Source of the DNA: a virus | DNA length: 64,000 nt | Virus genome (UHGV): UHGV-0277313 | Direction: 5' to 3' (one strand) | Shown here: one piece after another, positions 1,574 through 13,525 of the stretch | Layout: every line of letters begins with the position of its first letter | Numbering within the stretch: position 1 is the stretch's first letter | Made by a program: the position numbers and the translations under genes | The notes under the pieces: model-generated | What the model was told of the DNA's origin: nothing | The model's database searches: none | What the model saw: only the letters and a program-made list of their open reading frames with translations

Positions 1574-2536
1574 TTAAGATTGCGTTATTTTATTGAAACT
1601 CTTGAAGTATAATTTTAAGAAATGTCTGTACTCAATTCTCTTTTTATACCTATCAGAATACGAATCAGGCTTCATATTATCAGGATCTTCGTCGCCATTT
1701 AATTTAATTATTGTAACTGTTCCATTATAAAATTTTCTTAAGGTTTTGTAATTATTTATAATTTCAGCTCGTGAAACATCCCCGTCGAAACTAAACGAAA
1801 TTTCCGTTGGGTTTTTCGACGCGATAATTCTTGCTTGCGAATCAGCTAATACTTTACCAAAAATAGATACTGCAGTCACATCTTCAGGTGTATTACGGTT
1901 AGCTGCAATACCCGAAAAAACACCTTCAGTAATAATTACTTTACCATTTGTTGATACATTCTGAATATTCCAAACAGCAAATGATTTGTGACTTCCTTGA
2001 GGATTGATATATTTTGCTTCAGGGTTTTCTGATACATAATCACGTGCAACTAAATAAACAACGTTATTATTCAAATCAAACGTCGGAACAATAATCCTTC
2101 CCCGATATCTTCCTTGCCCAATACGGATATCGTATTTTTTAATTTCTTCAAACGTTATATTTCTTGAACGCAGATACTCAACTGCATTAACAAATGAACG
2201 ATCTATTTTTACTGAAATATTGTCCAAATCAATCAATTCAGCTTGAATTAACAGACCACTCGGTGATGTATATTTTATACGCTGTTTAGTATCAATGTTG
2301 TCTAGTTTATATCTTAATAATGCACCACCATTTACATAACCTTGTAATAGCTGATCTACTCTTCCAGACCACCCACATCGATAACAATGAAATACGTTTT
2401 TTTCAAGTGATAAACTTAATTTATAATCATCATAACGTTTACCTAACATTTTACAATTTGGACAATGTGTCACATATTGATCGACATTCGATGTTAAGCT
2501 TACATCTCTCAAACTTTCAACGCGTACATCACACAT
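1574..2536 (-). CDS. 61: DNA primase (T4 gp61-like; zinc-ribbon + TOPRIM)
   Basis: N-terminal zinc-binding motif HCPNCK...(21 aa)...HCYRCGWSG, followed by a TOPRIM-like core (IIVPTFDLNNNVVYLVARDY, ...ITEGVFSG...). Lies immediately downstream of the helicase, as in the T4 41-61 order. Confidence 0.75.
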   Translation of the reverse strand: MCDVRVESLRDVSLTSNVDQYVTHCPNCKMLGKRYDDYKLSLSLEKNVFHCYRCGWSGRVDQLLQGYVNGGALLRYKLDNIDTKQRIKYTSPSGLLIQAELIDLDNISVKIDRSFVNAVEYLRSRNITFEEIKKYDIRIGQGRYRGRIIVPTFDLNNNVVYLVARDYVSENPEAKYINPQGSHKSFAVWNIQNVSTNGKVIITEGVFSGIAANRNTPEDVTAVSIFGKVLADSQARIIASKNPTEISFSFDGDVSRAEIINNYKTLRKFYNGTVTIIKLNGDEDPDNMKPDSYSDRYKKRIEYRHFLKLYFKSFNKITQS

Positions 2537-3411
2537 TATTTAACACCATTAGCAGCTTTTTTCATTTCCTTAACGTCATACGGCTCACATTCTTTCACTT
2601 GATTAGCCGCTTTATCAAAGTTTACATACACAGTTGTATTTGTTTTACCACGACGGGCTTTAGCAACATATAATCTCATTTTACCATTGTCAGACTCTTC
2701 ACGAGTTTGGTTTAATGTAACAATGCCATATGCCACATGCGCTTTTCTTGATGAATCAGCTAACATGTCTTGCGATGCCACTTCATTGTCTTCAGTGTTC
2801 CATGCAGCCTTTCCTAACTGTGAACCTGTAACAACAGGACAATTAAATTGGTCAGCTAACGCCTTCAAGTCATAAAAAATTGTACCCATTTCTTCATATG
2901 TACTTTCAGATGACCGTCGCGTTTGTTTGTTCGGTAACATTAAATCTGCATAGTCTACAATAATTAAACCAGGTTCAAAATTTTCCAAAGAATGTAACTT
3001 CGTCAAATATGTTCTCAAATGATTAGCAGATACTGTTTTATTAGAATAATAAATAGTCCTTACATTAGGTGCCCAATATTTAATTTTCTGCACACGCTGT
3101 TTGTATTTTTCAATTTGTGATTCATCCAATAAATCTCTCATTGACATACCAGTTGAACAGGAAATGATATTTGATAACACTTCCTTTTCAGACCACTCAA
3201 ACGAAAAATACACAACCGGGCGTCTCTGAAACATTGCCTGATATGCCAAAAAGCTCAAGAACTTACTTTTTCCACGACCAGGCGCTCCGCAGTTTTTACT
3301 GTAAAAACAATGACTTAGCTCGAAGTTGTGATACTTATTATTCACCGTCAAATTGTAAACAGGCACCTTTTCATCAAGGTGAATGCGTTTTTTATTTACT
3401 AATTTCATCAA
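2536..3411 (-). CDS. 41: replicative DNA helicase (gp41/DnaB family), C-terminal gene fragment; begins with a 40-aa split-intein C-half then the Walker-A extein
   Basis: Residues 1-40 MMKLVNKKRIHLDEKVPVYNLTVNNKYHNFELSHCFYSKN match the DnaE-type Int-C consensus (VYDIGVERDHNFALKNGFIASN) and end in the terminal Asn. The +1 Cys starts CGAPGRGKSKFLSFLAYQA, a DnaB/gp41-like P-loop, followed by a RecA-like core. Own strong SD AAGGAAG sits 7 nt upstream of the ATG at 3411. Confidence 0.8.
   Translation of the reverse strand: MMKLVNKKRIHLDEKVPVYNLTVNNKYHNFELSHCFYSKNCGAPGRGKSKFLSFLAYQAMFQRRPVVYFSFEWSEKEVLSNIISCSTGMSMRDLLDESQIEKYKQRVQKIKYWAPNVRTIYYSNKTVSANHLRTYLTKLHSLENFEPGLIIVDYADLMLPNKQTRRSSESTYEEMGTIFYDLKALADQFNCPVVTGSQLGKAAWNTEDNEVASQDMLADSSRKAHVAYGIVTLNQTREESDNGKMRLYVAKARRGKTNTTVYVNFDKAANQVKECEPYDVKEMKKAANGVK
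3292..3411 (-). mobile_element. split intein C-fragment (Int-C, 40 aa) of the helicase
   Basis: See CDS 2536..3411. Block F/G-like VYNLTV...YHNFELSHCFYSKN, then the +1 Cys. Confidence 0.7.
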
Positions 3412-3518
3412 TTACTTCCTTACTTAAACCCAACTTCAGAACATAATCCAAATCGTTTTTGTATAAAAACTTCAGTGATGTTATCACAAAATCAGACAGT
3501 TCGTCAACCTTTAATGTT

Positions 3519-4475
3519 TTAAAATTCATCATCTTCCGACAAATCTTCCGCTTTTTTATATGCAACACCTTCTGACCATATAACTTTTTCATCACCTTTT
3601 TTTGGATTTGTAATTCTAAATTTATGATCAGGTGTACATTTAATTGTATACCCATTATCAAAAGTTAATTCGATCAATTCGTCTGTATCTCTAGTTTTCC
3701 ATACATTATAAATATCAGTTTCGAAAGAGTTTCCATTCTCATCAACTGAATAGGCTTTTTTATCTTTAAAGTTGTTTACCAAATCTTTGATTTCGATGAA
3801 ACCTTTATTTGTTTTCACTTTTGTATCACCTGTTAAACAGAATACATACAGTTCACCTTTTGCAATGCCGCCACCAAAAGCGTCATCTAATGAAGGAATG
3901 CCTGTTGTGAACATATTATCTTTGCCATAACTGTCACGTAACATTTGAGGTAATTCATCAAGTGAACTAACCAAATCTAACCCAAGATTTGTTCCTGCAC
4001 CAACAGACAATGCATCATCGATAATAGATACGGCTTTTTCGTAATCATTTGTTTTATCATACATATCGACCAATTTACCAATTGCATCACGCATTGCAAC
4101 GCTTTTAGCAAAATCTAAAGCTTGATCTTTTATGTACTGTGCGTCTTCAATAACAGTTGTTGTTAAGCTACGAATCACTGAAGCAAAATTTTCTTGTTCG
4201 ACAATAGGAATTGCATATTTACTCGTATAATTATTCAATTCAGTCAACAAAACAGATTCAGTCGGTTTTGTATGATACTGTTCGTAATATGAAATAATCC
4301 ACTGACAAATATTTTGCAAATAGACATTATCAAAAAAAGAAGGTTTAATTAATTCCACGCCAACTGTTGATAAATAGGTGAAATCTTGAAATAATAATGC
4401 AACAATCTTTTTCTGCATTTCAACTTCAAAATTATATGTTGTATCCTGTACAACTTCTTCGTTTTCATTGTCCAT
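3519..4475 (-). CDS. 41: replicative DNA helicase (gp41/DnaB family), N-terminal gene fragment (212-aa extein) fused to a 106-aa split-intein N-half
   Basis: Extein ends ...GIPSLDDAFGGGIAKGELYVF (DnaB-like segment preceding the P-loop). Then CLTGDTKVKTNKGFIEIKDLV...AYSVDENGNSFETDIYNVWK...KCTPDHKF (intein blocks A and B, TxxH), very similar to DnaE split-intein N-halves as I recall them. ORF stops after ...EDDEF. No contiguous frame into the C-fragment. Confidence 0.8.
   Translation of the reverse strand: MDNENEEVVQDTTYNFEVEMQKKIVALLFQDFTYLSTVGVELIKPSFFDNVYLQNICQWIISYYEQYHTKPTESVLLTELNNYTSKYAIPIVEQENFASVIRSLTTTVIEDAQYIKDQALDFAKSVAMRDAIGKLVDMYDKTNDYEKAVSIIDDALSVGAGTNLGLDLVSSLDELPQMLRDSYGKDNMFTTGIPSLDDAFGGGIAKGELYVFCLTGDTKVKTNKGFIEIKDLVNNFKDKKAYSVDENGNSFETDIYNVWKTRDTDELIELTFDNGYTIKCTPDHKFRITNPKKGDEKVIWSEGVAYKKAEDLSEDDEF
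3522..3839 (-). mobile_element. split intein N-fragment (Int-N, 106 aa) of the helicase
   Basis: Cys1 of CLTGDTKV lies at residue 213 of the ORF. Block B TPDHKF present. ORF terminates about 106 aa later, typical Int-N size. Confidence 0.7.
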
Positions 4476-4514
4476 AACTTTTTCCTTTTAAAAGAGAACT
4501 ACGGTTACCTTATA

Positions 4515-6479
4515 TCAACCTATTCTCGATTCACCCATTTTTTTAATCAACATTTTAAATTGTTCTTCATTTATTTCTGGAATTCCTTCGTTTTCTAGAT
4601 GTTGTTTCCTTTCTCTAGTCCAAGACTCAAGATATGGATGTCCTTTGTCATTAAAATCTACAAACACTGAACAGTTCAATCCTTTATCTTTTCTTCTGGT
4701 TACGCGGCCGATTCTTTGAACATGTGAAATAATATTTTTTCCAGCATCCATCAAGATACCAACATCAAATTCAGGAACATCAATACCTTCATTAAAAACA
4801 ACGTTTCCAACAATTACACGATATCCTTCTTCACGAATTGCCTTTTTAATTGTTTCAGCATTTCCCTTGCGTTCGACAACAACATGTTGAACAATACCTT
4901 TTTTTGTTTTTTCAGTCGCGTCAATAGCTTCATAAATCGTATTACCACCACACATAAATAAAGCTTTAATTCCTTTATCCTTCATTTCACGTACTATTGC
5001 TTTTCCATGTTCAATACGATTAACCATAACCAAAATTTTTAAATTATTCTTGTAACAAAATTCAATACAACGATATGCTGCTTCATTCCTATTAAAACTT
5101 TCTGCAACATATTTCTTATATACATCTGTGCAAGATTTACAAAACACAAATGATTTTGGTGCATAATTAATATAATATGAATAAACTAAAGACGAATATC
5201 CTTTATCACGAAGATACTTTGATGAAATATAATAAAACGAATTACCAAACAACGCTTTTAAAACAATATCATCAACACATTGCCCACCTTCTTTAAAAGG
5301 CGATGCTGTAAACCCAATTAAATATTCAGGATTCGCAACCATTGCGGGTATTGCAATGCTCTGACAGCTGCCGTGATGACATTCATCAACTATAATAGCT
5401 CTTACACTTTTCAGATATCTCATAATTTTTGGATCGTTACGTTTCACCATATTCCAAACTAAATTATTAGTTGAAACAATAATATCTGAATTATCCAAAA
5501 CAGGGTTTCTGTTAAGATATTCAATTTTACGGTCAATACCACGAAGTTTAGCACGACCTTCAATTTGATTTAAAATATTTGTTCGATTATTAATAACTAA
5601 AATTTTCCCATCAATTAATTTAAACAAAGATGCAATGATTTCAGTTTTACCAGAATTATGTACAATCACACCGTTGCTTAATGCAAAATTATGCAAATCA
5701 CAATCAACCTCAATATCATATACAGGAATAGGGTCTACATAATGTTCAGCAAATACTTGCTCAACAACACGACTCCCATAAACACCAGCTACAGGTGATT
5801 CAGCTAAAAGATTGATAGCTTCTACATATTTTCCATTACTTAAAAGGAAAAGATGATCGGGCGTGCATTCAACTTTAACACCATCATTAAATTTAATCTT
5901 CAATGTATCTTTAACATATTTTGACAAATGTGCCGAAACAATTGAATGAAACTTTCCATCTGAACAAAAAACAGACTTTCCATTAAAATTCATACTTAAT
6001 GAACTTAAAGTTTCAAAACCAGTATTTGTTAAAATTAAAGTATCGCCAACAAAACAACCTGTCGCAGCTTCACAGATACCATGTTTATTAATCAAACATT
6101 TTAAAGTACCAATCAATTGATGTTCACGTACTTCAAAACCAGGTGAAGCTAGTGCCATTTCATTATACGCTTGCCTAACCTTTTGCATTGTTGACTTTAC
6201 ATCAATATCAATTACTTTACGCTGATCGATTACAGTTTCAAAATGAAAATACGGTAAAATCAAATCATCAACACAACCTGATTGTACATATAAAGAAGTT
6301 TTTGTATTTTCAACTTCCATATACAATGTAATCAAACTCTGCCCATCAGCTGACAGTAATGTCAAACGTTTTTTTATACGGTTAATAAAATCAGCATCTT
6401 CATCTGAAATTAAAGACCACATCGATTTCGTAATCGTTAACATTTTATTTCTCTCAATTAGACTGTGTTTGAAAAACAA
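4515..6479 (-). CDS. uvsW: SF2 DExH-box ATP-dependent helicase, UvsW-like, interrupted by an in-frame 134-aa mini-intein in the Walker-A motif
   Basis: Extein junction ...KHGICEAATG|intein|SGKTEIIASL restores AATGSGKTE (helicase motif I). Motif II is VDECHHG. C-terminal QRIGRVTRR resembles the UvsW QTIGRVLRK. Spliced product would be about 520 aa. Confidence 0.65.
   Translation of the reverse strand: MFFKHSLIERNKMLTITKSMWSLISDEDADFINRIKKRLTLLSADGQSLITLYMEVENTKTSLYVQSGCVDDLILPYFHFETVIDQRKVIDIDVKSTMQKVRQAYNEMALASPGFEVREHQLIGTLKCLINKHGICEAATGCFVGDTLILTNTGFETLSSLSMNFNGKSVFCSDGKFHSIVSAHLSKYVKDTLKIKFNDGVKVECTPDHLFLLSNGKYVEAINLLAESPVAGVYGSRVVEQVFAEHYVDPIPVYDIEVDCDLHNFALSNGVIVHNSGKTEIIASLFKLIDGKILVINNRTNILNQIEGRAKLRGIDRKIEYLNRNPVLDNSDIIVSTNNLVWNMVKRNDPKIMRYLKSVRAIIVDECHHGSCQSIAIPAMVANPEYLIGFTASPFKEGGQCVDDIVLKALFGNSFYYISSKYLRDKGYSSLVYSYYINYAPKSFVFCKSCTDVYKKYVAESFNRNEAAYRCIEFCYKNNLKILVMVNRIEHGKAIVREMKDKGIKALFMCGGNTIYEAIDATEKTKKGIVQHVVVERKGNAETIKKAIREEGYRVIVGNVVFNEGIDVPEFDVGILMDAGKNIISHVQRIGRVTRRKDKGLNCSVFVDFNDKGHPYLESWTRERKQHLENEGIPEINEEQFKMLIKKMGESRIG
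5655..6056 (-). mobile_element. mini-intein (134 aa, no homing-endonuclease domain) inside the UvsW-like helicase P-loop
   Basis: CFVGDTLILTNTGFE (block A, Cys1) ... VECTPDHLF (block B) ... VYDIEVDCDLHNFALSNGVIVHN (blocks F/G, terminal HN), then +1 Ser. Same sequence family as the split intein in the gp41-like helicase. Confidence 0.7.
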
Positions 6480-6559
6480 CGTACCACATCTAATGCTATA
6501 TTGTCAATACAAAATGCAATAAATATTATAATTTATACATCATTTTTCAATAAAATAAC

Positions 6560-7873
6560 TCACTTATCTAAACTATTATAAATTTTATATAAATTTACCA
6601 TAGATTTAGATGACTTGAGTCTAAAAACTTCAGAATCAAAAGATTCTAAAGAACGTCTATATTTCACTTTAGATGTTTTTGTTATATCAAACAGTTCTTT
6701 CCAATTCTTATAAACCCAGCTTGATGATTCCTTCCATAGGTTGAACAAACTGGTTTTGTCTATAAGCTCTGGATAGAACTGACCTTTGATATATTTGAAC
6801 ATTGCTCTACGGGCAATTTCCAAACTTGCTGCTATTGGATCTGGTGCTTCATTACATATGTTTCCAATGAATGAAGAATAAACAGGGTTGACTTCGACGA
6901 AGTCTATTTTGTTTAGAAGAAAGTGCTTTCTTAAAGCAGAAACCAGTGCTTCATGTTTCCATTTATTCTTCGTTAATCTATTGAATGATTTACCTTTTCC
7001 TGTATTCCCAGTTTTGAAAGACAAATCTTCAATGCCAAATTTACCAACTTTATAATACTTACATTTCTGGATGATATCTTTAGCTATCTCTTTAAGCTCA
7101 AAGATTTGTTTGTTATTCTGGTGTTTACTTTTAGCATCATTTGAAGATTTGTGTAAGTTCTTTGTGAAATATGACAAATCATACTGCTCTTCAAGCAAAA
7201 TCTTTCTCTTATCACCAGTCCATTTAGAAATAGAAAATCCAATATAGTTTGGATTCATATCTATAGCACCAACTATATTTGGATTTCCAACATAATTGGA
7301 ACAATAGATTTTGGAATCATCAAAGGTTATGCAGATTCTATCCAACTTTAATTCAACACTAAAGTTAGATAACTTCTGCTTACATTGTTCTTCAAGGTTG
7401 ATTAATTCATATAAATAATTCTTATGTAAAATAGGCAATTTCAAGTTGATATGTTTTGATTTAGAAAACTTAAAGATTATCTGGTTATTCGAAATATCCA
7501 ACTGGAATTTACGGTTTCCGCCTTTTGACGTTTCACCTTGTGAATAACCCCCTAAAAGCCTATTTTCTTTGAAAATATCTTTATCTAACTTATGTTTTAA
7601 TCTTTGATAAAAAGAAAATTTGCCACCGAAAATAACCTTTTCTTTATTGGTTAAAAATATGTAATTTGCTTTCTTAATAGCACACTGAATAAACCAAGAA
7701 TCCGAAGGTACATTTGATAAACTTTTAGAAAGTAATCTAATGTCTTTTTCAGATTTGGAATCTTTATATCTGTTGAAAGCATATCTTACCATATTAGACG
7801 ACTTCCGAATTTCATCTTTGATGAAGCTTCGGTCGTCATCTGAACATGTATATGGTAAGTTAATCGTTTTCAA
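6560..7873 (-). CDS. TnpB/OrfB (IS200/IS605-family)-like RuvC-fold nuclease, lacking the usual C-terminal zinc finger (437 aa)
   Basis: RuvC-I GAIDMNPNYIGFSI (Asp), RuvC-II KFGIEDLSFK (Glu), then NRLTKNKW...FVEVNPVYSSFIGNIC, then NEAPDPIAASLEIARRA (RuvC-III Asp). N-terminus is TnpB-like (MKTINLPYT...). No CxxC...CxxC between RuvC-II and RuvC-III. Confidence 0.65.
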   Translation of the reverse strand: MKTINLPYTCSDDDRSFIKDEIRKSSNMVRYAFNRYKDSKSEKDIRLLSKSLSNVPSDSWFIQCAIKKANYIFLTNKEKVIFGGKFSFYQRLKHKLDKDIFKENRLLGGYSQGETSKGGNRKFQLDISNNQIIFKFSKSKHINLKLPILHKNYLYELINLEEQCKQKLSNFSVELKLDRICITFDDSKIYCSNYVGNPNIVGAIDMNPNYIGFSISKWTGDKRKILLEEQYDLSYFTKNLHKSSNDAKSKHQNNKQIFELKEIAKDIIQKCKYYKVGKFGIEDLSFKTGNTGKGKSFNRLTKNKWKHEALVSALRKHFLLNKIDFVEVNPVYSSFIGNICNEAPDPIAASLEIARRAMFKYIKGQFYPELIDKTSLFNLWKESSSWVYKNWKELFDITKTSKVKYRRSLESFDSEVFRLKSSKSMVNLYKIYNSLDK

Positions 7874-7943
7874 ATTTAAAACCTTATCAAACTTTTTGTC
7901 TTTATTTGTTATAAATTATAAAAAATTAAAAATCAAGACTTGT

Positions 7944-8720
7944 TTAAAAAATAATATAAGCGTAATTAGATAAACCTGTTGCTTCAAACATGTATGCAGT
8001 TTCCTGTGTATCTTCCAATTTACAAACAGGTGTGTACTTAAAAGTTGTTCCTTCTCTATCACGTGTATATACAGAAATACCTTGATTCAGATACATGATG
8101 ACTTCCTGACGAGATTTAAGAAATTTCTTTTTATATTTAGGTACAGACATTACAGAAGCAATTTCTTCATTTGTAAAACCATACACTTTCATCAAATCAC
8201 CTAATGTGACAGGGCAATCTTCTTTAGGATTATTTTGTTCAAATTTAGCAATCACATTTTTTAAAGACTTCAACAATTCATTTTTTTCAGATGACAACTG
8301 AACTCTTTTTTCATCAATGATTACTTCTTTTTCTTTCTTTTTAGGCAAACTATTAAATGTTGGTTTAACTTCTTTAGCCTTTTCTGTCTTTTTGGGTTTC
8401 GACTTTTTAGTCTCAACCTTCTTAACAGCGACCTCTTTTTTCTTTTCAGGTTCATGTTTTTTAGCTTCAGCTTTTTCTTTAATAGCTTTAGCTGGGCCAT
8501 ACCCTTCAGCATATCCCCATTTAGTTAATGCAACTTTAGCAGCACGATAACGATTTGCTTCAGTTACAACAATTGAATTACCACAATCATTACACAAAAT
8601 AGTTTGAGTAATTGATTTATCTTTATTCTTTACATATTTAGCAGTGATGTTATGTTTTCCACATTTAGGACAATTACCCGCCTGAACATTCAACGCTTCA
8701 CTATCTTTTCTTTTAGCCAT
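7944..8720 (-). CDS. zinc-ribbon protein with lysine-rich (histone-H1-like) linker and a C-terminal globular domain (258 aa)
   Basis: N-terminal CPKCGK...(20 aa)...CNDCGN, a C4 ribbon. Middle KEKAEAKKHEPEKKKEVAVKKVETKKSKPKKTEKAKEVKP low-complexity K/E tract. About 110-aa C-terminal domain of unknown fold. Lies between two TnpB-like genes. Confidence 0.5.
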   Translation of the reverse strand: MAKRKDSEALNVQAGNCPKCGKHNITAKYVKNKDKSITQTILCNDCGNSIVVTEANRYRAAKVALTKWGYAEGYGPAKAIKEKAEAKKHEPEKKKEVAVKKVETKKSKPKKTEKAKEVKPTFNSLPKKKEKEVIIDEKRVQLSSEKNELLKSLKNVIAKFEQNNPKEDCPVTLGDLMKVYGFTNEEIASVMSVPKYKKKFLKSRQEVIMYLNQGISVYTRDREGTTFKYTPVCKLEDTQETAYMFEATGLSNYAYIIF

Positions 8721-8993
8721 TTAAAAACACCTTTAAAAGTTAAATATCAAATATGCTTTATCATTACATAAATTTTGCTAAATAGCAACAGAAAAGTTCT
8801 TTATTTATTTGTTGTTGACAAAGGAATATGAAAACAAATGAATGAACTTGATTTGCTGATTGAAGAATTTCAAAAAGAAATTAGAAATAAACTTGAAGAA
8901 AACAATCAAAAAACAAACTTTGCTAAATTGTTTGAAGATTTCATGATGACTATTGATAAAAAGGCGTCTAGCTTCAATTAAATACCTCAAATA

Positions 8994-10355
8994 TTAAAAC
9001 TTATTAACATCTTGCATAAAGAAATTAACGAATCTTAAAGTTTTAGACTGAAAGACTCTTTCATCAAGAGGAAACCTATATTTAAATTTAGATTTCTTTA
9101 ACTCGGAATGAATCTGTTGCCAATTCACAAAACCAACAAAGCACTTTACTTCTTCCAACGAGTGTTTTACTTTGTCTAATAATGATTCTGTTAAATCTGG
9201 AAAGATCACATTCTTCGTTTTGGCTTTAATCTTCTGTATGTATTGAAGATTAAACTCATAGCATCTTCTACTGATTTCAATAGAAGATAACACCATGTCT
9301 GGTAATTCTAAATCTCTATAGACTAGATTACCAATAGTGGATGAATATTGTGGAGATATTTCTATAAACTTAATTCCATAAATATTGCATCTCTTTTTAA
9401 GATTATTGACTAATTTATTTCTACACCAATTATTATTTACAAGTCTATTGAAATTCTTTCCTTGTTTATTATCCTTGGACTTAATAGACAAATCCTCAAC
9501 ACCAAAACATTCGCAATGATAATGTTTTGCTATATCAACAAGAAACTTGGCTACTTTCAATGTTTCATATTGACGTTTATTGTTAAGATATTTTCTTTCC
9601 TTTGATGTTGAAGGTAATTTTAATTTCTTGAGTTTATACTCAATATCATTGATATTCTTTAATGATACTACACCTGAATTTATAGCCTTTAATTCATCAG
9701 ATGATTTCCAGTCTACGACTGACCAACCAACATAATTTGGGTTCATATCGATAGAAAATATTCTGTTTGATATTGGTTTAAATATCTTTTCTGACAATAT
9801 CATTTCATCAAATGAAATATATACAAATTTTTTATCTAATTTGTATGTGATTGGAGTATCTTTCAACTGTTGATGAATATATAATTTTTGTAATACTTTA
9901 ATTCTATTACCAACACCAATAAGTTTTAAGTGTATTCTGTTTTTAATTGTTGGACTAAAGTTGACTGAATAGCAATCTTCAGATAATCTGAAGAATCTAT
10001 TTCCCCTATAGTTTCTATCACCAATTGAACACAAAGATACTAATCTTTTTTCTTTAAATTCTTCATTTGATATGTTGTGTCTAAATCTTTGTTCGAATAG
10101 ACGTTTGCCACCAAATAAAACAGTTTCTTCTTTCTTCAACAAAAATGAAGCATCTTTTACACAAGATTGTCTGAACCATGATTTCATTAAATCAAGATTA
10201 TTGAATTGTAAATGTTTACAAGCAGTTTCAGATACGCCATCTTTTAATCTATTATAAAACAAATGAAGAAGATTATTATATTGCCTCTGATAATCAGCTA
10301 TCAACTGATTATCAGATTCTTTTTCTGCAATATACTTAATCTTCAATGTTATCAT
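8994..10355 (-). CDS. TnpB/OrfB-like RuvC-fold nuclease, second diverged paralog, also lacking a zinc finger (453 aa)
   Basis: IFSIDMNPNYVGWSV (RuvC-I), ECFGVEDLSIKS (RuvC-II), FIEISPQYSSTIGNLVYRDLELPDMVLSSIEISRRC (RuvC-III Asp). N-terminal MITLKIKY... is typical of TnpB. Paralogous to 6560..7873. Confidence 0.65.
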   Translation of the reverse strand: MITLKIKYIAEKESDNQLIADYQRQYNNLLHLFYNRLKDGVSETACKHLQFNNLDLMKSWFRQSCVKDASFLLKKEETVLFGGKRLFEQRFRHNISNEEFKEKRLVSLCSIGDRNYRGNRFFRLSEDCYSVNFSPTIKNRIHLKLIGVGNRIKVLQKLYIHQQLKDTPITYKLDKKFVYISFDEMILSEKIFKPISNRIFSIDMNPNYVGWSVVDWKSSDELKAINSGVVSLKNINDIEYKLKKLKLPSTSKERKYLNNKRQYETLKVAKFLVDIAKHYHCECFGVEDLSIKSKDNKQGKNFNRLVNNNWCRNKLVNNLKKRCNIYGIKFIEISPQYSSTIGNLVYRDLELPDMVLSSIEISRRCYEFNLQYIQKIKAKTKNVIFPDLTESLLDKVKHSLEEVKCFVGFVNWQQIHSELKKSKFKYRFPLDERVFQSKTLRFVNFFMQDVNKF

Positions 10356-10425
10356 TAAATAATTCCTTAACTTACCTATTATTCTACATTATCATCTTTT
10401 TAAGAAAAATACAAGAAAGATTTAT

Positions 10426-10635
10426 ATGATCTTATACAAAATTCCTTTTACCAACAAAGCTTCATATGAAACAATTTCAAAAGTGTTTGATGATAAAGAA
10501 AATAGCAACAGGTTTTTACAACCAACATGTGAACATATTGAAGATTTCTTAAAAGATGAAGGTGTTGAAGGCCTTGATGCTGATTCTCAACAAATATGTA
10601 TTGGCTGGGAATTTAAACTAGAAGATATTTTGTAA
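10426..10635 (+). CDS. hypothetical small acidic protein (69 aa), lone plus-strand ORF in the early block
   Basis: ORF ends 8 nt before a strong bidirectional terminator. Weak SD (aagaaag). No homology recognised. Confidence 0.3.
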   Translation: MILYKIPFTNKASYETISKVFDDKENSNRFLQPTCEHIEDFLKDEGVEGLDADSQQICIGWEFKLEDIL

Positions 10636-10643
10636 ACAATAAA

Positions 10644-10671
10644 GGCGGGAATTGAACCCGCCTTTTCTTTT
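10644..10671. terminator. bidirectional rho-independent terminator between convergent genes
   Basis: GGCGGG-aattgaa-CCCGCC stem-loop, followed by TTTTCTTTT on the plus strand and by a U-rich tract (ttattgttta) on the minus strand. Confidence 0.7.
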
Positions 10672-11056
10672 AATCGTTACGCCCCAAATCAGAATCAATA
10701 CCCATTGCTTCAAGGGTTCGCATTTCTTCTTTTTTACGTAAATACTCTTCAGTCAACTTTTGTTGTGCCTGTTCCCATTCTTCACGAGCTGTTGCTGAAG
10801 TTTTCCATTCTTCCGCTGAACATGTATAAAAGGCTTGTGGATGTGGTTTATCAAGTGTGTATTCAACAGGGAATACCATTTGACCGCGTTCTTCATCCCA
10901 CATAGCGGCTGGCATTAAATTACACATACAGCCTGGAACTGACAAGATTTCGTCAACAGATTGAAAATCGGCTGTTTTCAATCCCATTTCAACATACGTC
11001 CCATCTTTTTGACGAATCTTTGATTTACCTTTTTCTTCTTTTAGTTCAATAGACAT
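10670..11056 (-). CDS. hypothetical protein (128 aa)
   Basis: Long ORF in the early operon context. No motif recognised. Confidence 0.45.
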   Translation of the reverse strand: MSIELKEEKGKSKIRQKDGTYVEMGLKTADFQSVDEILSVPGCMCNLMPAAMWDEERGQMVFPVEYTLDKPHPQAFYTCSAEEWKTSATAREEWEQAQQKLTEEYLRKKEEMRTLEAMGIDSDLGRND

Positions 11057-11080
11057 TTAGATCCACTTTCATTCTAGAGT

Positions 11081-12118
11081 TTAAGACAATTGTTCAATGA
11101 TTTTATCAACAGTAATTTCTTTCATTTCTTCATCAGAAGGAACGTCTTCCAACAAGGAACAATAATCAGAAAGATATTGTTTTAAATCACAATTTAATTC
11201 CTTGATATGTTTAGGTTCAGTTTTTAAAGCTAATTCATAACACAACGGAATCATTTTTAAAGGCAATCCTAAACAATAACTATTAATAAAATTTTCTATA
11301 CGTTTAACATGTTGAAATCCGTTAAATTCAAATTTTGTATATCTAGTTACTCCACTTTTAAGTTCCAATAAAGCAAACATTTTAGGTGACTTGCTAGGTA
11401 ATATATTAAACATGTTATTCTTTAATAAATCATGTTTACTCATGAACTTCAGCAGATAATTCATATACGATATTTTACCACCACGCGGAAGATTCTTTCC
11501 TTCAGTCCATAAACGATACCATATACGAATGCAAGGCAAATCTTGTTTACCTGTTTCTGAAATAACATCAGTTTTCCAATTTACACGTTTATTTGAATAT
11601 AATAAACCATCAATTAAATTGACTTGTTTTCTTTCAGACAACGCAGGGCCGTCATAATACAATTTAACCTTCCTAATAATTTCAGGCATTTCAGTTTTAT
11701 CAACTTGCTGATCCGCGCTTCTTTTTGCCGTATAACGAACACGAACAGGTTTGCGAATATCAATTAAAGGCAAACCTTCTCTTTCCAAAACTTTATTCGC
11801 TTCTGGAATTAAATCATAGGCTGTATAGCTTTTACCTTTATATAAATAATGTCTATATCCGTTTGGTGTTATCTTGTTATATAATAGATTTAAAACAAAT
11901 CTAAAAGTATCGCTCGTTTCCCAATCAAGAATTTCATCTTTTACACAAAAGAAATCCATATAAAAATTATACAATTGAGAATTATTACCACGCTGATATT
12001 CAATCTGCATAGGCTTTAAATCATACTTTACAGCTAAATCTGAAATAGGGATACCAAAGGCTAATTCCTTTAATAACTGATCCCTTAAATCATCAGTTAA
12101 TAGAGATGCTTTAGGCAT
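11081..12118 (-). CDS. hypothetical protein with N-terminal HTH-like segment (345 aa)
   Basis: N-terminal LRDQLLKELAFGIPISDLAVKYDLKPMQIEY looks like a helix-turn-helix. The remainder is unassigned. Confidence 0.45.
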   Translation of the reverse strand: MPKASLLTDDLRDQLLKELAFGIPISDLAVKYDLKPMQIEYQRGNNSQLYNFYMDFFCVKDEILDWETSDTFRFVLNLLYNKITPNGYRHYLYKGKSYTAYDLIPEANKVLEREGLPLIDIRKPVRVRYTAKRSADQQVDKTEMPEIIRKVKLYYDGPALSERKQVNLIDGLLYSNKRVNWKTDVISETGKQDLPCIRIWYRLWTEGKNLPRGGKISYMNYLLKFMSKHDLLKNNMFNILPSKSPKMFALLELKSGVTRYTKFEFNGFQHVKRIENFINSYCLGLPLKMIPLCYELALKTEPKHIKELNCDLKQYLSDYCSLLEDVPSDEEMKEITVDKIIEQLS

Positions 12119-12199
12119 GAAATAGAACTCATCATTAGATCAATTAGGATTTACAATTACCTAAAGAACAATTACGAATTCATCTTAAAGAAATTAATT

Positions 12200-13525
12200 C
12201 TACAATTTTGCCTTAAAGACGGCATCTTTTATTTTATTATAAATAGATTGAAATTGTTCAACAATCCCCATAGTATGATTTAATTGTTTGTTGCTTGTTC
12301 GACCAAACATAATATATTGAACGGCATCTTTAAAGGCACCTGAACGATAATGAATATTCTTGCACCACATCTTAAAATTCTGTGTAACAACATGAATTAC
12401 AGTTGAATATTTATAATTCGTACTCAAAGCAATTTTAGTAATGTTTTCATATAGATATCTTAAATCTGCAACAATAACATCATCTAAAACATCACCATCA
12501 AAACGAAAACCTAATAATTGGCAATTTTCTAGAAATTCATTGAATGTACGCATACAAGTAAAGTTATGTATATTTGGATGTGCATCAACGAAATTTTGAA
12601 TTGTCGGATCTAATCCTTCTGTAACAAATTCAACAGGAATCGTTCTTTTCTGGCCACCAATTAATAAATTTTTCTTCAGTCTTTTGTGCTCTTTTAAAGT
12701 ACGTTGCATTGCAACCTTTTCCAAACGTTTACTATGTTTTGTAAACAATTTGGCAATATTCACATCAGGAATCAATAATGAAGGAACATAATTCGCTTCA
12801 TCAAATGTTTCAGGCTCACCTTCACATGTTTTAATACCCAACCCTTTACGAGTACCATCACCATGTGTTTTACAAAAATAGTGATATGCCACTAAAACAT
12901 TGATAATATTACCCCATTCTAATGAACCAAAACCAAATTCCTTATCGTCAAACCAACCATTTTGTGTTTGAATTGCCATGATGTCATAATCAATTGCATC
13001 TAATCTGGCAAGAATAATAGCTAAAGCGCAATCATGTGTATGAAAATCTTGCACCTTAACTAGTTTTTTATGTACAAATTCTTTTAATTCCAAAAAGACA
13101 TGATTCACTAAATTTGGGTTTTTAGCTAATATATCAATTGCATCTTCAGGTTTATATCTATTCAATGCTTCAATATCATATTGAACAACATTACCTTTAA
13201 TTACCTTACTTTTTTGTACTTTATATGTGCCAAATTGATCCGCCAGTTTTTTAAATACACTTCTCTTATTTTTAATTTTTCCACCACGATCAATACACCA
13301 ATCCATATTGGCAATCTTCATCTTTTCTGGTGCATAATATTGTAAAAATGTCGGGGTGAACCAACCGTAATGACTAGACATCGGCAACCCTGATTTAACA
13401 TACTTCTTCGTGAACTGACGGCCACCTAATTTGTTCATAGTTGTTACTGCAATTTTAGACAAGTCTTTTTTCTTATAAAAGACTATTTCTTCACGTAACT
13501 TTTTTAGAACATTAATAGGTAACAA
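12200..13525 (-). CDS. hypothetical protein (441 aa); first gene of the leftward early operon
   Basis: Long ORF. The caller start is TTG at 13525 and the first in-frame ATG is at residue 30, so the start is uncertain. Contains an FHTHDCA histidine cluster. No confident family assignment. Confidence 0.45.
   Translation of the reverse strand: MLPINVLKKLREEIVFYKKKDLSKIAVTTMNKLGGRQFTKKYVKSGLPMSSHYGWFTPTFLQYYAPEKMKIANMDWCIDRGGKIKNKRSVFKKLADQFGTYKVQKSKVIKGNVVQYDIEALNRYKPEDAIDILAKNPNLVNHVFLELKEFVHKKLVKVQDFHTHDCALAIILARLDAIDYDIMAIQTQNGWFDDKEFGFGSLEWGNIINVLVAYHYFCKTHGDGTRKGLGIKTCEGEPETFDEANYVPSLLIPDVNIAKLFTKHSKRLEKVAMQRTLKEHKRLKKNLLIGGQKRTIPVEFVTEGLDPTIQNFVDAHPNIHNFTCMRTFNEFLENCQLLGFRFDGDVLDDVIVADLRYLYENITKIALSTNYKYSTVIHVVTQNFKMWCKNIHYRSGAFKDAVQYIMFGRTSNKQLNHTMGIVEQFQSIYNKIKDAVFKAKL

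Follow-up and report, generated by a model that had tools for sequence, protein, structure and literature searches.

Elements encoding TnpB are the ancestors of Cas12 and serve as miniature genome editors, and the TnpB-like TldR proteins, which are nuclease-dead, carry out RNA-guided repression. For one phage-rich clade of TnpB proteins devoid of the zinc finger we know of no functional description so far. A member of this clade, the TnpB of ISCaje4 from Campylobacter phage CP220, was named in 2010, before RNA guidance was known (PMC2853527), and its element is annotated as belonging to the IS200/IS605 family, with a tnpA fragment and tnpB. Two other groups serve for comparison: IS607-family TnpB proteins such as that of ISFba1 (PDB 8IAZ), RuvC D-E-D nucleases of about 390-450 aa, the ISFba1 reRNA lying wholly outside the coding sequence (PMC11061315); and ISDra2 and other IS605-type TnpB (PDB 8EXA, 8H1J; PMC8612924), in which the scaffold overlaps the 3′ end of tnpB and reaches the right end, and of which tnpB-only derivatives are common.

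The window, that is, the whole 64,000-nucleotide stretch of virus genome UHGV-0277313 analysed here, contains two TnpB-like genes (Table 1) of the same clade as ISCaje4 TnpB, which is 43% identical over 96% of paralog 2. The label "previously uncharacterised", used in a sequence-only reading of this DNA, therefore does not wholly hold for the clade. ISCaje4 is likewise phage-borne and compact, with about 50 bp past the stop codon, and its 3′ part also folds strongly (z = -7.9). However, it has an 80-aa resolvase-like tnpA remnant upstream, whereas the window copies have none, and identity stays below 45%. With IS607-family TnpB the window copies share the type of nuclease and its size, and their clade is associated with a TnpA composed of MerR-HTH and serine-recombinase parts; nevertheless, their predicted structured RNA is located inside the ORF, they lack a zinc finger, and the spacer from the catalytic E to the following D is 65 aa in the window clade versus 80 aa in ISFba1 TnpB (E290 to D371, PMC11061315). 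The position of the scaffold recalls ISDra2, but the zinc-finger/TNB insertion is missing and no Y1 tnpA was found in the clade neighbourhoods. The Seg and Mob homing endonuclease genes of T4-like phages provide a functional analogy only: they are also small selfish nuclease genes lying between conserved co-oriented phage genes, with a presence or absence that varies between close strains, although the proteins are unrelated, the window elements are multi-copy with transposon-like ends, and their targeting would be by RNA.

Table 1. Features of the two elements and their surroundings (positions in the window)
Feature	Position	Strand	Remarks
TnpB-like ORF 1 (paralog 1)	6560..7873	-	437 aa, TTG start; RuvC D-E-D intact, zinc finger absent
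TnpB-like ORF 2 (paralog 2)	8994..10355	-	453 aa; RuvC D203/E287/D353, without zinc finger
Zinc-ribbon / K-rich / C-terminal-domain gene	7944..8720	-	resident phage DNA, belongs to neither element
Element 1, tnpB-only insertion	6549..7949	-	~1,401 bp; L184 comparison; empty sites also in L014-L016
Element 1 left end	7874..7949	-	76 bp upstream of start codon; conserved in L176 and L177 copies
Element 2, tnpB-only insertion	8975..10439	-	~1,465 bp; L184 comparison; 195 bp of target gene replaced
Element 2 left end	10356..10439	-	84 bp upstream of ATG
5′ remnant of disrupted 175-aa gene	8838..8981	+	47-aa ORF; aligns to N-terminus of intact 173-175 aa proteins (L014-L016, L184)
3′ remnant of disrupted 175-aa gene	10426..10635	+	69-aa ORF; aligns to C-terminus of intact homologs
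Predicted omega-RNA-like scaffold, element 1	6549..6794	-	stem 1, hairpins 2-4, right end
Predicted omega-RNA-like scaffold, element 2	8975..9213	-	same four-part architecture as element 1
Predicted guide segment, element 1	6529..6548	-	flank DNA directly 3′ of right end; inferred
Predicted guide segment, element 2	8955..8974	-	directly 3′ of right end; inferred
Unoccupied site, DnaB_C / primase-like gene junction	2530..2545	-	TAATG overlap; junction comparison with L182 and L183

The nuclease proteins and their clade

As had been proposed, the two ORFs (437 and 453 aa, both on the minus strand) encode diverged paralogs that share 32% identity over their full length (E 3e-57). The three RuvC motifs picked out in the earlier reading coincide with the catalytic columns, and D203, E287 and D353 (paralog 2 numbering) are kept in 103-104 of the 104 family members; the residues lost in TldR are thus intact across the window clade. 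The best fold matches are RuvC and Cas12f/TnpB structures, with Cas12f and Cas12k as the top structural matches, and the proteins present an N-terminal WED/REC architecture resembling that of TnpB and Cas12f, while family members have around 99 aa C-terminal to RuvC-III. The zinc finger, reported as lacking, is truly absent, since the spacer between RuvC-II and RuvC-III has a median of only 65 aa and two CxxC motifs occur in 0 of the 104 members; in the predicted model, its position (that of the zinc-finger/TNB domain) is taken by a short helix. This absence runs through the whole clade, which clusters at 50% identity into about 1,650 groups and includes ISCaje4. These data support the identification of both proteins as TnpB-type RuvC nucleases without a zinc finger, although DNA cleavage might be compromised by the loss of the zinc-finger/TNB domain.

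In profile searches, TIGR01766 gives 38.7 bits for paralog 2 (cut-off 32) and 19.9 bits, under the cut-off, for paralog 1; the curated full-length TnpB model NF040570, with its cut-off at 100, yields 21.9 bits, and Cas12f1-like_TNB 14.9 against 26.3. Pfam OrfB_IS605 does not match, TnpB proteins of the PDB are not retrieved by sequence profile at E <= 1, and the family assigned in the precomputed Pfam annotation is PF27229 (SSO2105_N). The dN/dS ratios, 0.14-0.15 for paralog 1 against L176 and L177 and 0.12-0.16 overall, indicate that these proteins, with their triad intact, are under purifying selection.

Upstream of tnpB, an IS607-type tnpA (a MerR-HTH + Resolvase ORF; PF00239, E 1.9e-17) appears in 24 of the 159 fetched loci (about 15%), with no other recurrent upstream ORF family and no Y1 tnpA in the clade neighbourhoods. 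No tnpA is adjacent to the window elements or present elsewhere in the window. Therefore, the clade is IS607-associated and the window copies are non-autonomous; the earlier remark that no IS200-type tnpA is adjacent was true, but the transposase of this clade is a serine recombinase of IS607 type. In several other jumbo-phage contigs, one tnpA-bearing copy is found together with several solo copies. The zinc-finger-less TnpB clade to which both elements belong is abundant in jumbo and mega-phages and present there in multiple copies.

Two recent insertions and the genes around them

The carrier genome is that of a jumbo phage of about 300 kb (~277-314 kb), which is metagenome-only. Its designation as T4-like holds insofar as the portal protein matches the Portal_T4 Pfam family, but it is a loose label, the nearest isolate portal being only 29% identical. 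In strain L184, the flanks are 98-99% identical to those of the window (11 differences in 1.2 kb) and both nuclease genes are absent; hence each gene constitutes a discrete insertion of ~1.4-1.47 kb. Both sites are also empty in three more distant relatives (L014-L016), and the double-insert haplotype recurs in other samples. At other sites in related phages there are relatives 77-90% identical, among them paralog 2-like copies (85-90%) in four other contexts and paralog 1-like copies (83-85%) in two, one of these in the same genome. Reciprocally, the window is empty at the junction where L182 and L183 carry, between the DnaB_C and primase-like genes, an element copy sharing 87% identity with paralog 2. 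Homology between copies consistently breaks off ~70-145 bp before the start and ~10-45 bp past the stop, and the parts of each element are a short left end, the tnpB ORF, and a right end 11-19 nt past the stop codon. Each nuclease gene is therefore carried by an insertion sequence of its own, non-autonomous and recently inserted.

These empty sites, the search for which had been recommended, and the near copies at other loci contradict the reading as a domesticated conserved phage gene. Nor do the genes form a functional unit within the replication operon, being insertion products at sites empty in L184. Among the three readings first offered, the data speak best for a selfish RNA-guided element of homing type.

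The ends of element 1 are ambiguous within a 5-bp TTATT junction repeat. With the junctions marked by a slash, the empty site in L184 reads TATTATT/GAAAAATGA and the occupied site in the window TATTATT/TTTTAAAC...GAGTTATTTTATT/GAAAAATGA. The junctions are AT-rich (TATTATT/TTTTAAAC at one side and TTTTATT/GAAAA at the other), in contrast with IS607-type elements, which leave no target duplication and whose GG termini and G-rich target (AGGAG or GAGGG) are absent here, and a dinucleotide crossover is possible. No TAM motif could be defined, the sole hint being TTATT in the left flanks of all three paralog 1-type copies (element 1, L176 and L177; three sequences only). The insertion point lies at the very end of the zinc-ribbon gene, where the final codons were altered from IIEK/IIEN* to IIF*. 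The description of the product of this gene proved accurate: it has four invariant Cys (C17, C20, C43 and C46), residues 73-137 make up a disordered linker rich in K and E, and the C-terminal domain is folded. The partnership with TnpB attributed to it does not hold, however, as it has only 11 homologs, whereas either TnpB-like protein has more than 1,000, and as it occupies the same place in related phages without a TnpB gene. It is an ordinary phage gene and a chance neighbour of the elements.

The limits of element 2 were set by alignment, window positions 10440 and 8974 corresponding to 1664 and 1860 of L184, and homology to the L004 copy, located in an unrelated context, covers 10441-8977. 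Its target was a conserved 175-aa gene on the opposite strand, 195 bp of which were lost, a deletion that simple transposition does not explain. The 5′ remnant of this gene, a 47-aa ORF, falls within 8721-8993, a stretch previously taken to be 275 bp of non-coding DNA. The insertions adjoin essential replication genes and have their orientation; the helicase operon and the zinc-ribbon gene would represent a mere landing area.

A predicted structured RNA at the 3′ end of tnpB

The last 73 codons of each gene show a marked drop in synonymous divergence: dS is 0.13-0.18 versus 0.89-0.92 upstream in paralog 1 and 0.23-0.29 versus 0.47-0.73 in paralog 2 (2.5-7 times lower at the 3′ end), and over 149 pairs the fraction of synonymous differences falls from ~0.29 to 0.13-0.17. 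An extra synonymous constraint thus acts on the final ~220 nt of both ORFs and on the right end; part of this constraint could come from transposase binding or other DNA-level right-end signals. The same region is predicted to fold. In element 1, a long stem 1 is followed by hairpins 2 (6677-6652), 3 (6651-6628) and 4 (6621-6557), with a minimum free energy of -75.4 kcal/mol (z = -7.7), shuffled sequences giving -40.8 +/- 4.5. The scaffold of element 2 (hairpins 2, 3 and 4 at 9096-9071, 9070-9056 and 9040-8985) is thermodynamically weaker and alone not significant (z = -1.6); its fold agrees with that of L182 (z = -5.1) and of the rest of the family.

Across the family, the median fold z is -3.4 for the 3′ 250 nt, while internal control segments give -0.5 to -1.1. 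In hairpin 2, pairing reaches 93.8% and there are 122 double-change cells, where shuffles give 35 +/- 4.6 and slid controls no more than 30; it also contains G-U pairs, which work only on the sense RNA, and stem 1 and hairpin 3 are retained though their sequences are unrelated. Comparative analysis accordingly points to a four-part RNA structure conserved family-wide on the sense strand, and each tnpB gene apparently carries a guide-RNA scaffold within its 3′ end. No Rfam family, RAGATH-18 included, matches it, whether at the gathering threshold or with the limit relaxed to E <= 10, which separates it from IS607/RAGATH-18 RNAs.

The location proposed earlier for the guide RNAs, in the downstream spacers, has to be revised, as constraint, fold and covariation place the scaffold in the ORFs, and 6480-6559 is native intergenic DNA upstream of the helicase gene, except for 11 nt of the element 1 right end. 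By analogy with TnpB reRNAs, which read through the right end (PMC8612924, PMC10711439), the spacer would supply only the ~20-nt guide. Two of the 11 differences between the window and L184, at 6538 and 6531, fall within predicted guide 1.

Possible roles in jumbo phages

The elements are non-autonomous members of a phage-rich TnpB clade that lacks the zinc finger, and they probably represent recent, independent, selfish tnpB-only insertions in a jumbo phage, each with its own scaffold RNA. The 3′ structured RNA would act as an omega/reRNA scaffold, transcription running ~16-20 nt past the right end to provide the guide. The TnpB-RNA complex could then cut, beside a short AT-rich motif, the matching empty allele of a sister genome or of a co-infecting element-less phage, and repair by recombination from the occupied copy would restore the element or spread it (homing or retention). 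To move to new sites, an element would depend on a tnpA that an autonomous relative provides in trans. That the tnpA-less elements owe their spread among jumbo phages mainly to RNA-guided homing, with phage recombination copying the element into the cut allele of the co-infecting phage, can be put forward only tentatively.

In T4, free-standing homing endonucleases cause marker exclusion, and on this model the nucleases could have been co-opted as a weapon or competition factor, the phage benefiting when they cut element-less co-infecting relatives, or host or plasmid DNA. The recurrence of the occupied haplotype in several samples, the vicinity and orientation of essential replication genes, the purifying selection, and a review that counts homing between co-infecting phages among the possible modes of OMEGA systems (PMC13565253) are in line with this proposal. 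It is unlikely, however, given that a near-identical strain thrives without either element, one insertion wrecked a conserved gene, the copies are transposon-like and scattered over unrelated loci, and no guides were seen against targets beyond the element's own flank. Inactive relics, that is, tnpB-only fossils without a working ribonucleoprotein, in which loss of the zinc finger would reflect decay or a change to a non-nuclease role such as the RNA-guided repression of TldR, would fit the absence of tnpA and zinc finger, the low NF040570 score and the weak fold of paralog 2, but this seems quite improbable in the face of the preserved triad, which TldR lacks, the low dN/dS, a zinc-finger absence that is clade-wide and not a recent loss, the covarying RNA, and insertions recent enough to have 98-99% identical empty alleles. 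A compact Cas12f-like type V CRISPR effector with its array elsewhere, suggested by the top structural matches, is hardly credible, because no array-like direct repeats exist in 4000-13000 (9 kb), cas1/cas2 are absent from the gene lists of the examined loci, and the clade shows discrete ends, empty sites and association with tnpA.

For annotation, the lesson is that insertion accounts for the nuclease genes, the truncated zinc-ribbon end and the two small ORFs on the opposite strand. A clade without TNB whose triad is under purifying selection tests what that domain is needed for, and its ~240-nt scaffold, matching no catalogued RNA family, offers a new protein-RNA pair. Since near-identical strains exist with and without the elements, TnpB homing between co-infecting phages becomes directly testable, the occupied/empty pair being a natural test system. 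If the homing proposal is true, RNA-guided nucleases would occupy in these phages the niche that protein-only homing endonucleases hold in T4-like phages.

Two TnpB-like genes inserted recently in a phage replication module

The TnpB-like genes of the window, paralog 1 and paralog 2, share 32% identity along their entire length (E 3e-57) and stand in series with a zinc-ribbon gene and a helicase gene, beyond which lie further replication genes, namely a split DnaB-like helicase and a primase-like gene. The metagenomic phage genome of which the window is a part measures about 277-314 kb; no isolate has a portal more than 29% identical to its own, and a megablast against phage records gave no match.

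Features of the window at the two TnpB-like elements
Feature	Coordinates	Strand	Remark
Paralog 2 ORF, 453 aa	8994-10355	-	First of series
Zinc-ribbon ORF, 258 aa	7944-8720	-	Second of series
Paralog 1 ORF, 437 aa, TTG start	6560-7873	-	Third of series
Intein-containing helicase gene	4515-6479	-	After paralog 1
DnaB-like piece with intein domain, 318 aa	3519-4475		
Separate DnaB_C piece, 291 aa	2536-3411		
Element 1	7949-6549	-	From comparison with empty site
Element 2	10439-8975	-	Substitutes 195 bp mid-way in opposite-strand 175-aa gene
End remnants of disrupted 175-aa gene	8838-8981 and 10426-10635	+	Small ORFs
Low-difference first ~20 codons	7814-7873 and 10296-10355		Paralogs 1 and 2
Predicted omega/reRNA scaffold	6794-6549 and 9213-8975		Elements 1 and 2
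Predicted guide, ~20 nt past right end	6548-6529 and 8974-8955		Elements 1 and 2
Bidirectional terminator-like hairpin	10641-10665		Strong; AAAGGCGGG...CCCGCCTTT

Three related phages (L014-L016) keep the gene order of the window without any TnpB-like gene, with genes of 444, 346 and 128 aa followed by an opposite-strand gene of 173-175 aa, the zinc-ribbon gene and the helicase. Both TnpB-like genes are also absent from a fourth contig, L184, whose identity to the window is 98.1%, 95.4% and 99.0% over the three flanking segments. These comparisons show that the two nuclease genes are insertions, discrete mobile units that arrived recently, and not resident genes. Their absence from these relatives, together with close copies at other loci, argues against the proposal of the sequence-only reading that they were domesticated by the phage. 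The occupied double-insert haplotype has been seen again in other samples.

At element 1, the empty site reads ...GCTTATATTATT joined to GAAAAATGA..., and the occupied site reads ...GCTTATATTATT joined to TTTTAAAC...GAGTTATTTTATT, joined in turn to GAAAAATGA...; a 5-bp TTATT repeat makes this junction ambiguous. With the insertion, the zinc-ribbon protein ends in ...YAYIIF in place of ...YAYIIEK/N. Simple transposition does not account for the 195 bp lost at element 2. Comparison of flanks for a TAM and exact termini yielded junction microhomologies only, TTATT for element 1 and TA in L182, a locus with a paralog 2-type copy. As for a co-conversion signature, the differences between the window and L184 show no gradient away from the junctions. 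The 1.2 kb downstream of element 1 contain 11 differences, of which two, at 6531 and 6538, are in the predicted guide/target segment, the first 20 nt past the right end of the element; this clustering, which is only suggestive, could reflect target-site escape or chance. In the zinc-ribbon gene segment, about 120 nt (8150-8270) hold 26 of the 47 differences, a cluster that looks like a small recombination mosaic patch within the gene.

The replication module (2536-6479 in the window; 8870-11749 in L014) is also rich in other selfish elements. Its DnaB-like helicase is in two pieces, and intein content varies among related strains, some having a helicase of 642-654 aa and others one of 808-959 aa. 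The terminator-like hairpin separates the 128-aa gene from the 3' end of the opposite-strand gene that element 2 disrupted.

The zinc-ribbon gene had been regarded as a partner of the TnpB pair, a candidate role rejected because it has 11 homologs, against more than 1,000 for each TnpB-like protein, and because five related loci carry the gene and have no TnpB genes. Its distribution is limited to the lineage of the window phage, and its location does not depend on the TnpB elements. The protein combines a Lar/TFIIS-like C4 ribbon, with weak profile matches only, a disordered linker rich in lysine and glutamate, and a C-terminal domain that is confidently folded in the structure model; the model, this domain included, gave no significant fold match.

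A zinc-finger-less TnpB clade and its transposon affiliation

Curated profiles give only weak TnpB signals for the two large proteins. With TIGR01766 (cut-off 32), paralog 2 scores 38.7 bits and paralog 1 scores 19.9 bits, NF040570 (guided_TnpB) reaches 21.9 bits against a cut-off of 100, and Pfam OrfB matches neither protein. A PDB sequence search with a profile of 26 family members returned nothing at E <= 1. The AlphaFold model of paralog 2 (pLDDT 80.8) was matched by Foldseek to Cas12f, Cas12k, ISDra2 TnpB, ISFba1 TnpB and Fanzor2 with probability 1.0; the proteins are linked to TnpB and Cas12 by fold comparison only, the modelled fold itself being clear.

In an alignment of 104 members, drawn from the window and the fetched loci, 103-104 keep the three catalytic residues, none has two CxxC motifs, the spacer from RuvC-II to RuvC-III has a median of 65 aa, and about 99 residues follow RuvC-III. 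The observation of two TnpB-like, RuvC-intact, zinc-finger-less ORFs was therefore correct, and the description holds for the clade as a whole. An exhaustive profile search retrieved 1,648 clusters at 50% identity (E <= 1e-3).

Around 29 loci (L150, L155, L157, L163, L165, L171, L034-L036, L041, L044 and others) hold megaphage family members with in-frame TAG, the tally in otherwise intact megaphage members being 280 TAG, 4 TGA and 0 TAA; the clade therefore extends into TAG-recoded (Lak-type) phages, whose family genes get cut off in standard-code ORF calls. L183, from a related phage, carries a different TnpB gene (6659-7362) near the same replication module, which matches Cas12f1-like_TNB (PF07282), so that several TnpB lineages colonise these phages.

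Close copies of both elements occupy other positions. Paralog 2 has a copy (85%) after a radical-SAM cluster in 314-kb contigs, with DNA homology to the window limited to 10441-8977, another (87%) between DnaB_C and primase-like genes of a related phage, at a location matched in the window by an empty site at ~2536, and a third (90%) in a further, separate context. Paralog 1 has a copy (85%) that is the third within the window's own genome and another (83%) just before a dCMP deaminase gene. Radical-SAM clusters of several genes occur in the window phage lineage (L004 5255-8980; L176 1187-2934 and 6485-7308), a trait shared with Campylobacter phages CP220 and CPt10; in this lineage, two TnpB element copies are inside or beside such clusters.

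Across a family-wide survey of 159 loci from viral and metagenome collections, not de-duplicated, homology between copies ends ~70-145 bp upstream of the start codon on one side and ~10-45 bp past the stop on the other, and many large phage contigs carry 2-5 copies. Directly upstream in 24 of these 159 loci lies a co-oriented ORF of ~200 aa with a MerR-type HTH and a serine-recombinase domain (PF00239, E 1.9e-17), which is an IS607-type TnpA. Such tnpA genes share jumbo-phage contigs with several solo copies; none lies within the 64-kb window, and both of its copies are therefore non-autonomous. The closest annotated relative, at 43% identity, is the TnpB of ISCaje4 from Campylobacter phage CP220, an element assigned to IS200/IS605 in which a resolvase-like ORF of 80 aa lies upstream (PMC2853527). 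In contrast to described IS607 members, which have GG termini, G-rich flanks, a RAGATH-18 RNA and structured RNA after the ORF (PMC11061315, PMC10711439, PMC13565253), the window elements lack GG termini and RAGATH-18, have AT-rich flanks and carry their structured RNA within the ORF.

An RNA structure conserved at the 3' end of the ORF

In 149 family pairs with 70-97% protein identity, the fraction of identical-residue codons that differ is ~0.29 over most of the gene, falling to 0.13-0.17 in the last ~73 codons and to 0.09 in the first 20. The 5' suppression, also a strong one, may reflect cis signals of the left end; an element acting in translation or as RNA, and overlapping the gene start, is the alternative. 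Between paralog 1 and its copies in L176 and L177, dS is 0.13-0.18 in the last 73 codons and 0.89-0.92 upstream; the values for paralog 2 against L004 and L182 are 0.23-0.29 and 0.47-0.73. Whole-gene dN/dS (0.14-0.15 and 0.14-0.16, respectively), as estimated from these comparisons, shows that the nuclease, its RuvC intact, is under purifying selection.

The folding energy is -75.4 kcal/mol for the 3' 249 nt of paralog 1, while shuffled versions give -40.8 +/- 4.5 (z = -7.7). The paralog 2 scaffold alone folds weakly (z = -1.6), and its architecture matches that of the 87% relative L182 (z = -5.1). Among 76 members, a 250-nt stretch with hairpin 2 at its centre has a median z of -3.4, with 58% below -3, compared with z of -0.5 to -1.1 and 1-9% below -3 in three internal control windows. 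From 5' to 3', the scaffold comprises a stem of ~100 nt whose tip carries the conserved GUCGUUGGAAGAA, hairpin 2 (8 bp), hairpin 3 of variable length, a conserved GUUUUnAG motif and hairpin 4 (~60 nt), which runs into the right end.

For hairpin 2, the first scoring used a protein-guided alignment, made independently of RNA structure, and the second a MAFFT alignment, where the hairpin is 93.8% paired with double changes in seven of its eight pairs. Double-change cells number 122, against 35 +/- 4.6 when shuffled (0/500 reach 122) and at most 30 with partners slid. G-U pairs are present, and since these would be mismatches on the opposite strand or in DNA, the hairpin is supported on the sense RNA. 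RNAalifold, applied to the 76-sequence MAFFT alignment, recovered hairpin 2 only, because the other stems differ in length; these were therefore tested sequence by sequence against shuffles, a weaker test than structure-aware covariation, in which hairpin 3 and stem 1 each gave a median z of -3.4, both being kept despite quite different subfamily sequences. Rfam returned no family at the gathering threshold or at E <= 10.

A sense-strand RNA structure is thus conserved where TnpB guide RNAs are encoded. It would represent the omega/reRNA scaffold, with the guide predicted from the nucleotides just past each right end. The downstream spacers (8721-8993 and 6480-6559), in which omega RNAs had been expected, were rejected as the site of the scaffold: both are target-site DNA, and the structure sits inside the 3' ends of the ORFs.

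A proposed homing mode for the non-autonomous elements

The ribonucleoprotein would cut the element-free allele beside a short motif; the element would then be restored or spread by recombination, with an occupied copy as partner, a scheme established for IS605/IS607 TnpB (PMC8612924, PMC10055086, PMC10690162, PMC10711439). In a phage, the natural substrates would be sister genomes and co-infecting relatives, which corresponds to the 'non-restorative homing' mode proposed in PMC13565253. The insertions border conserved, co-oriented replication genes, either separating two of them or sitting at a gene end, as do the free-standing homing endonuclease genes of T4-like phages. This placement and the two differences near the right end of element 1 fit the homing mode and are no proof of it. 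Reaching new loci would require a transposase acting in trans, or another route.

Of the interpretations offered by the sequence-only reading, that of a selfish RNA-guided element is the one supported; the partner, domestication and guide-RNA position did not hold, nor did a Cas12-like effector, a search of 4000-13000 for a CRISPR array having found none. Both window elements are non-autonomous and belong to a zinc-finger-less, phage-rich TnpB clade with a link to IS607-type transposases. Their appeal for experiments is moderate, and lies in a clade without the TNB domain, an uncatalogued scaffold embedded in the ORF and a pair of occupied and empty strains.
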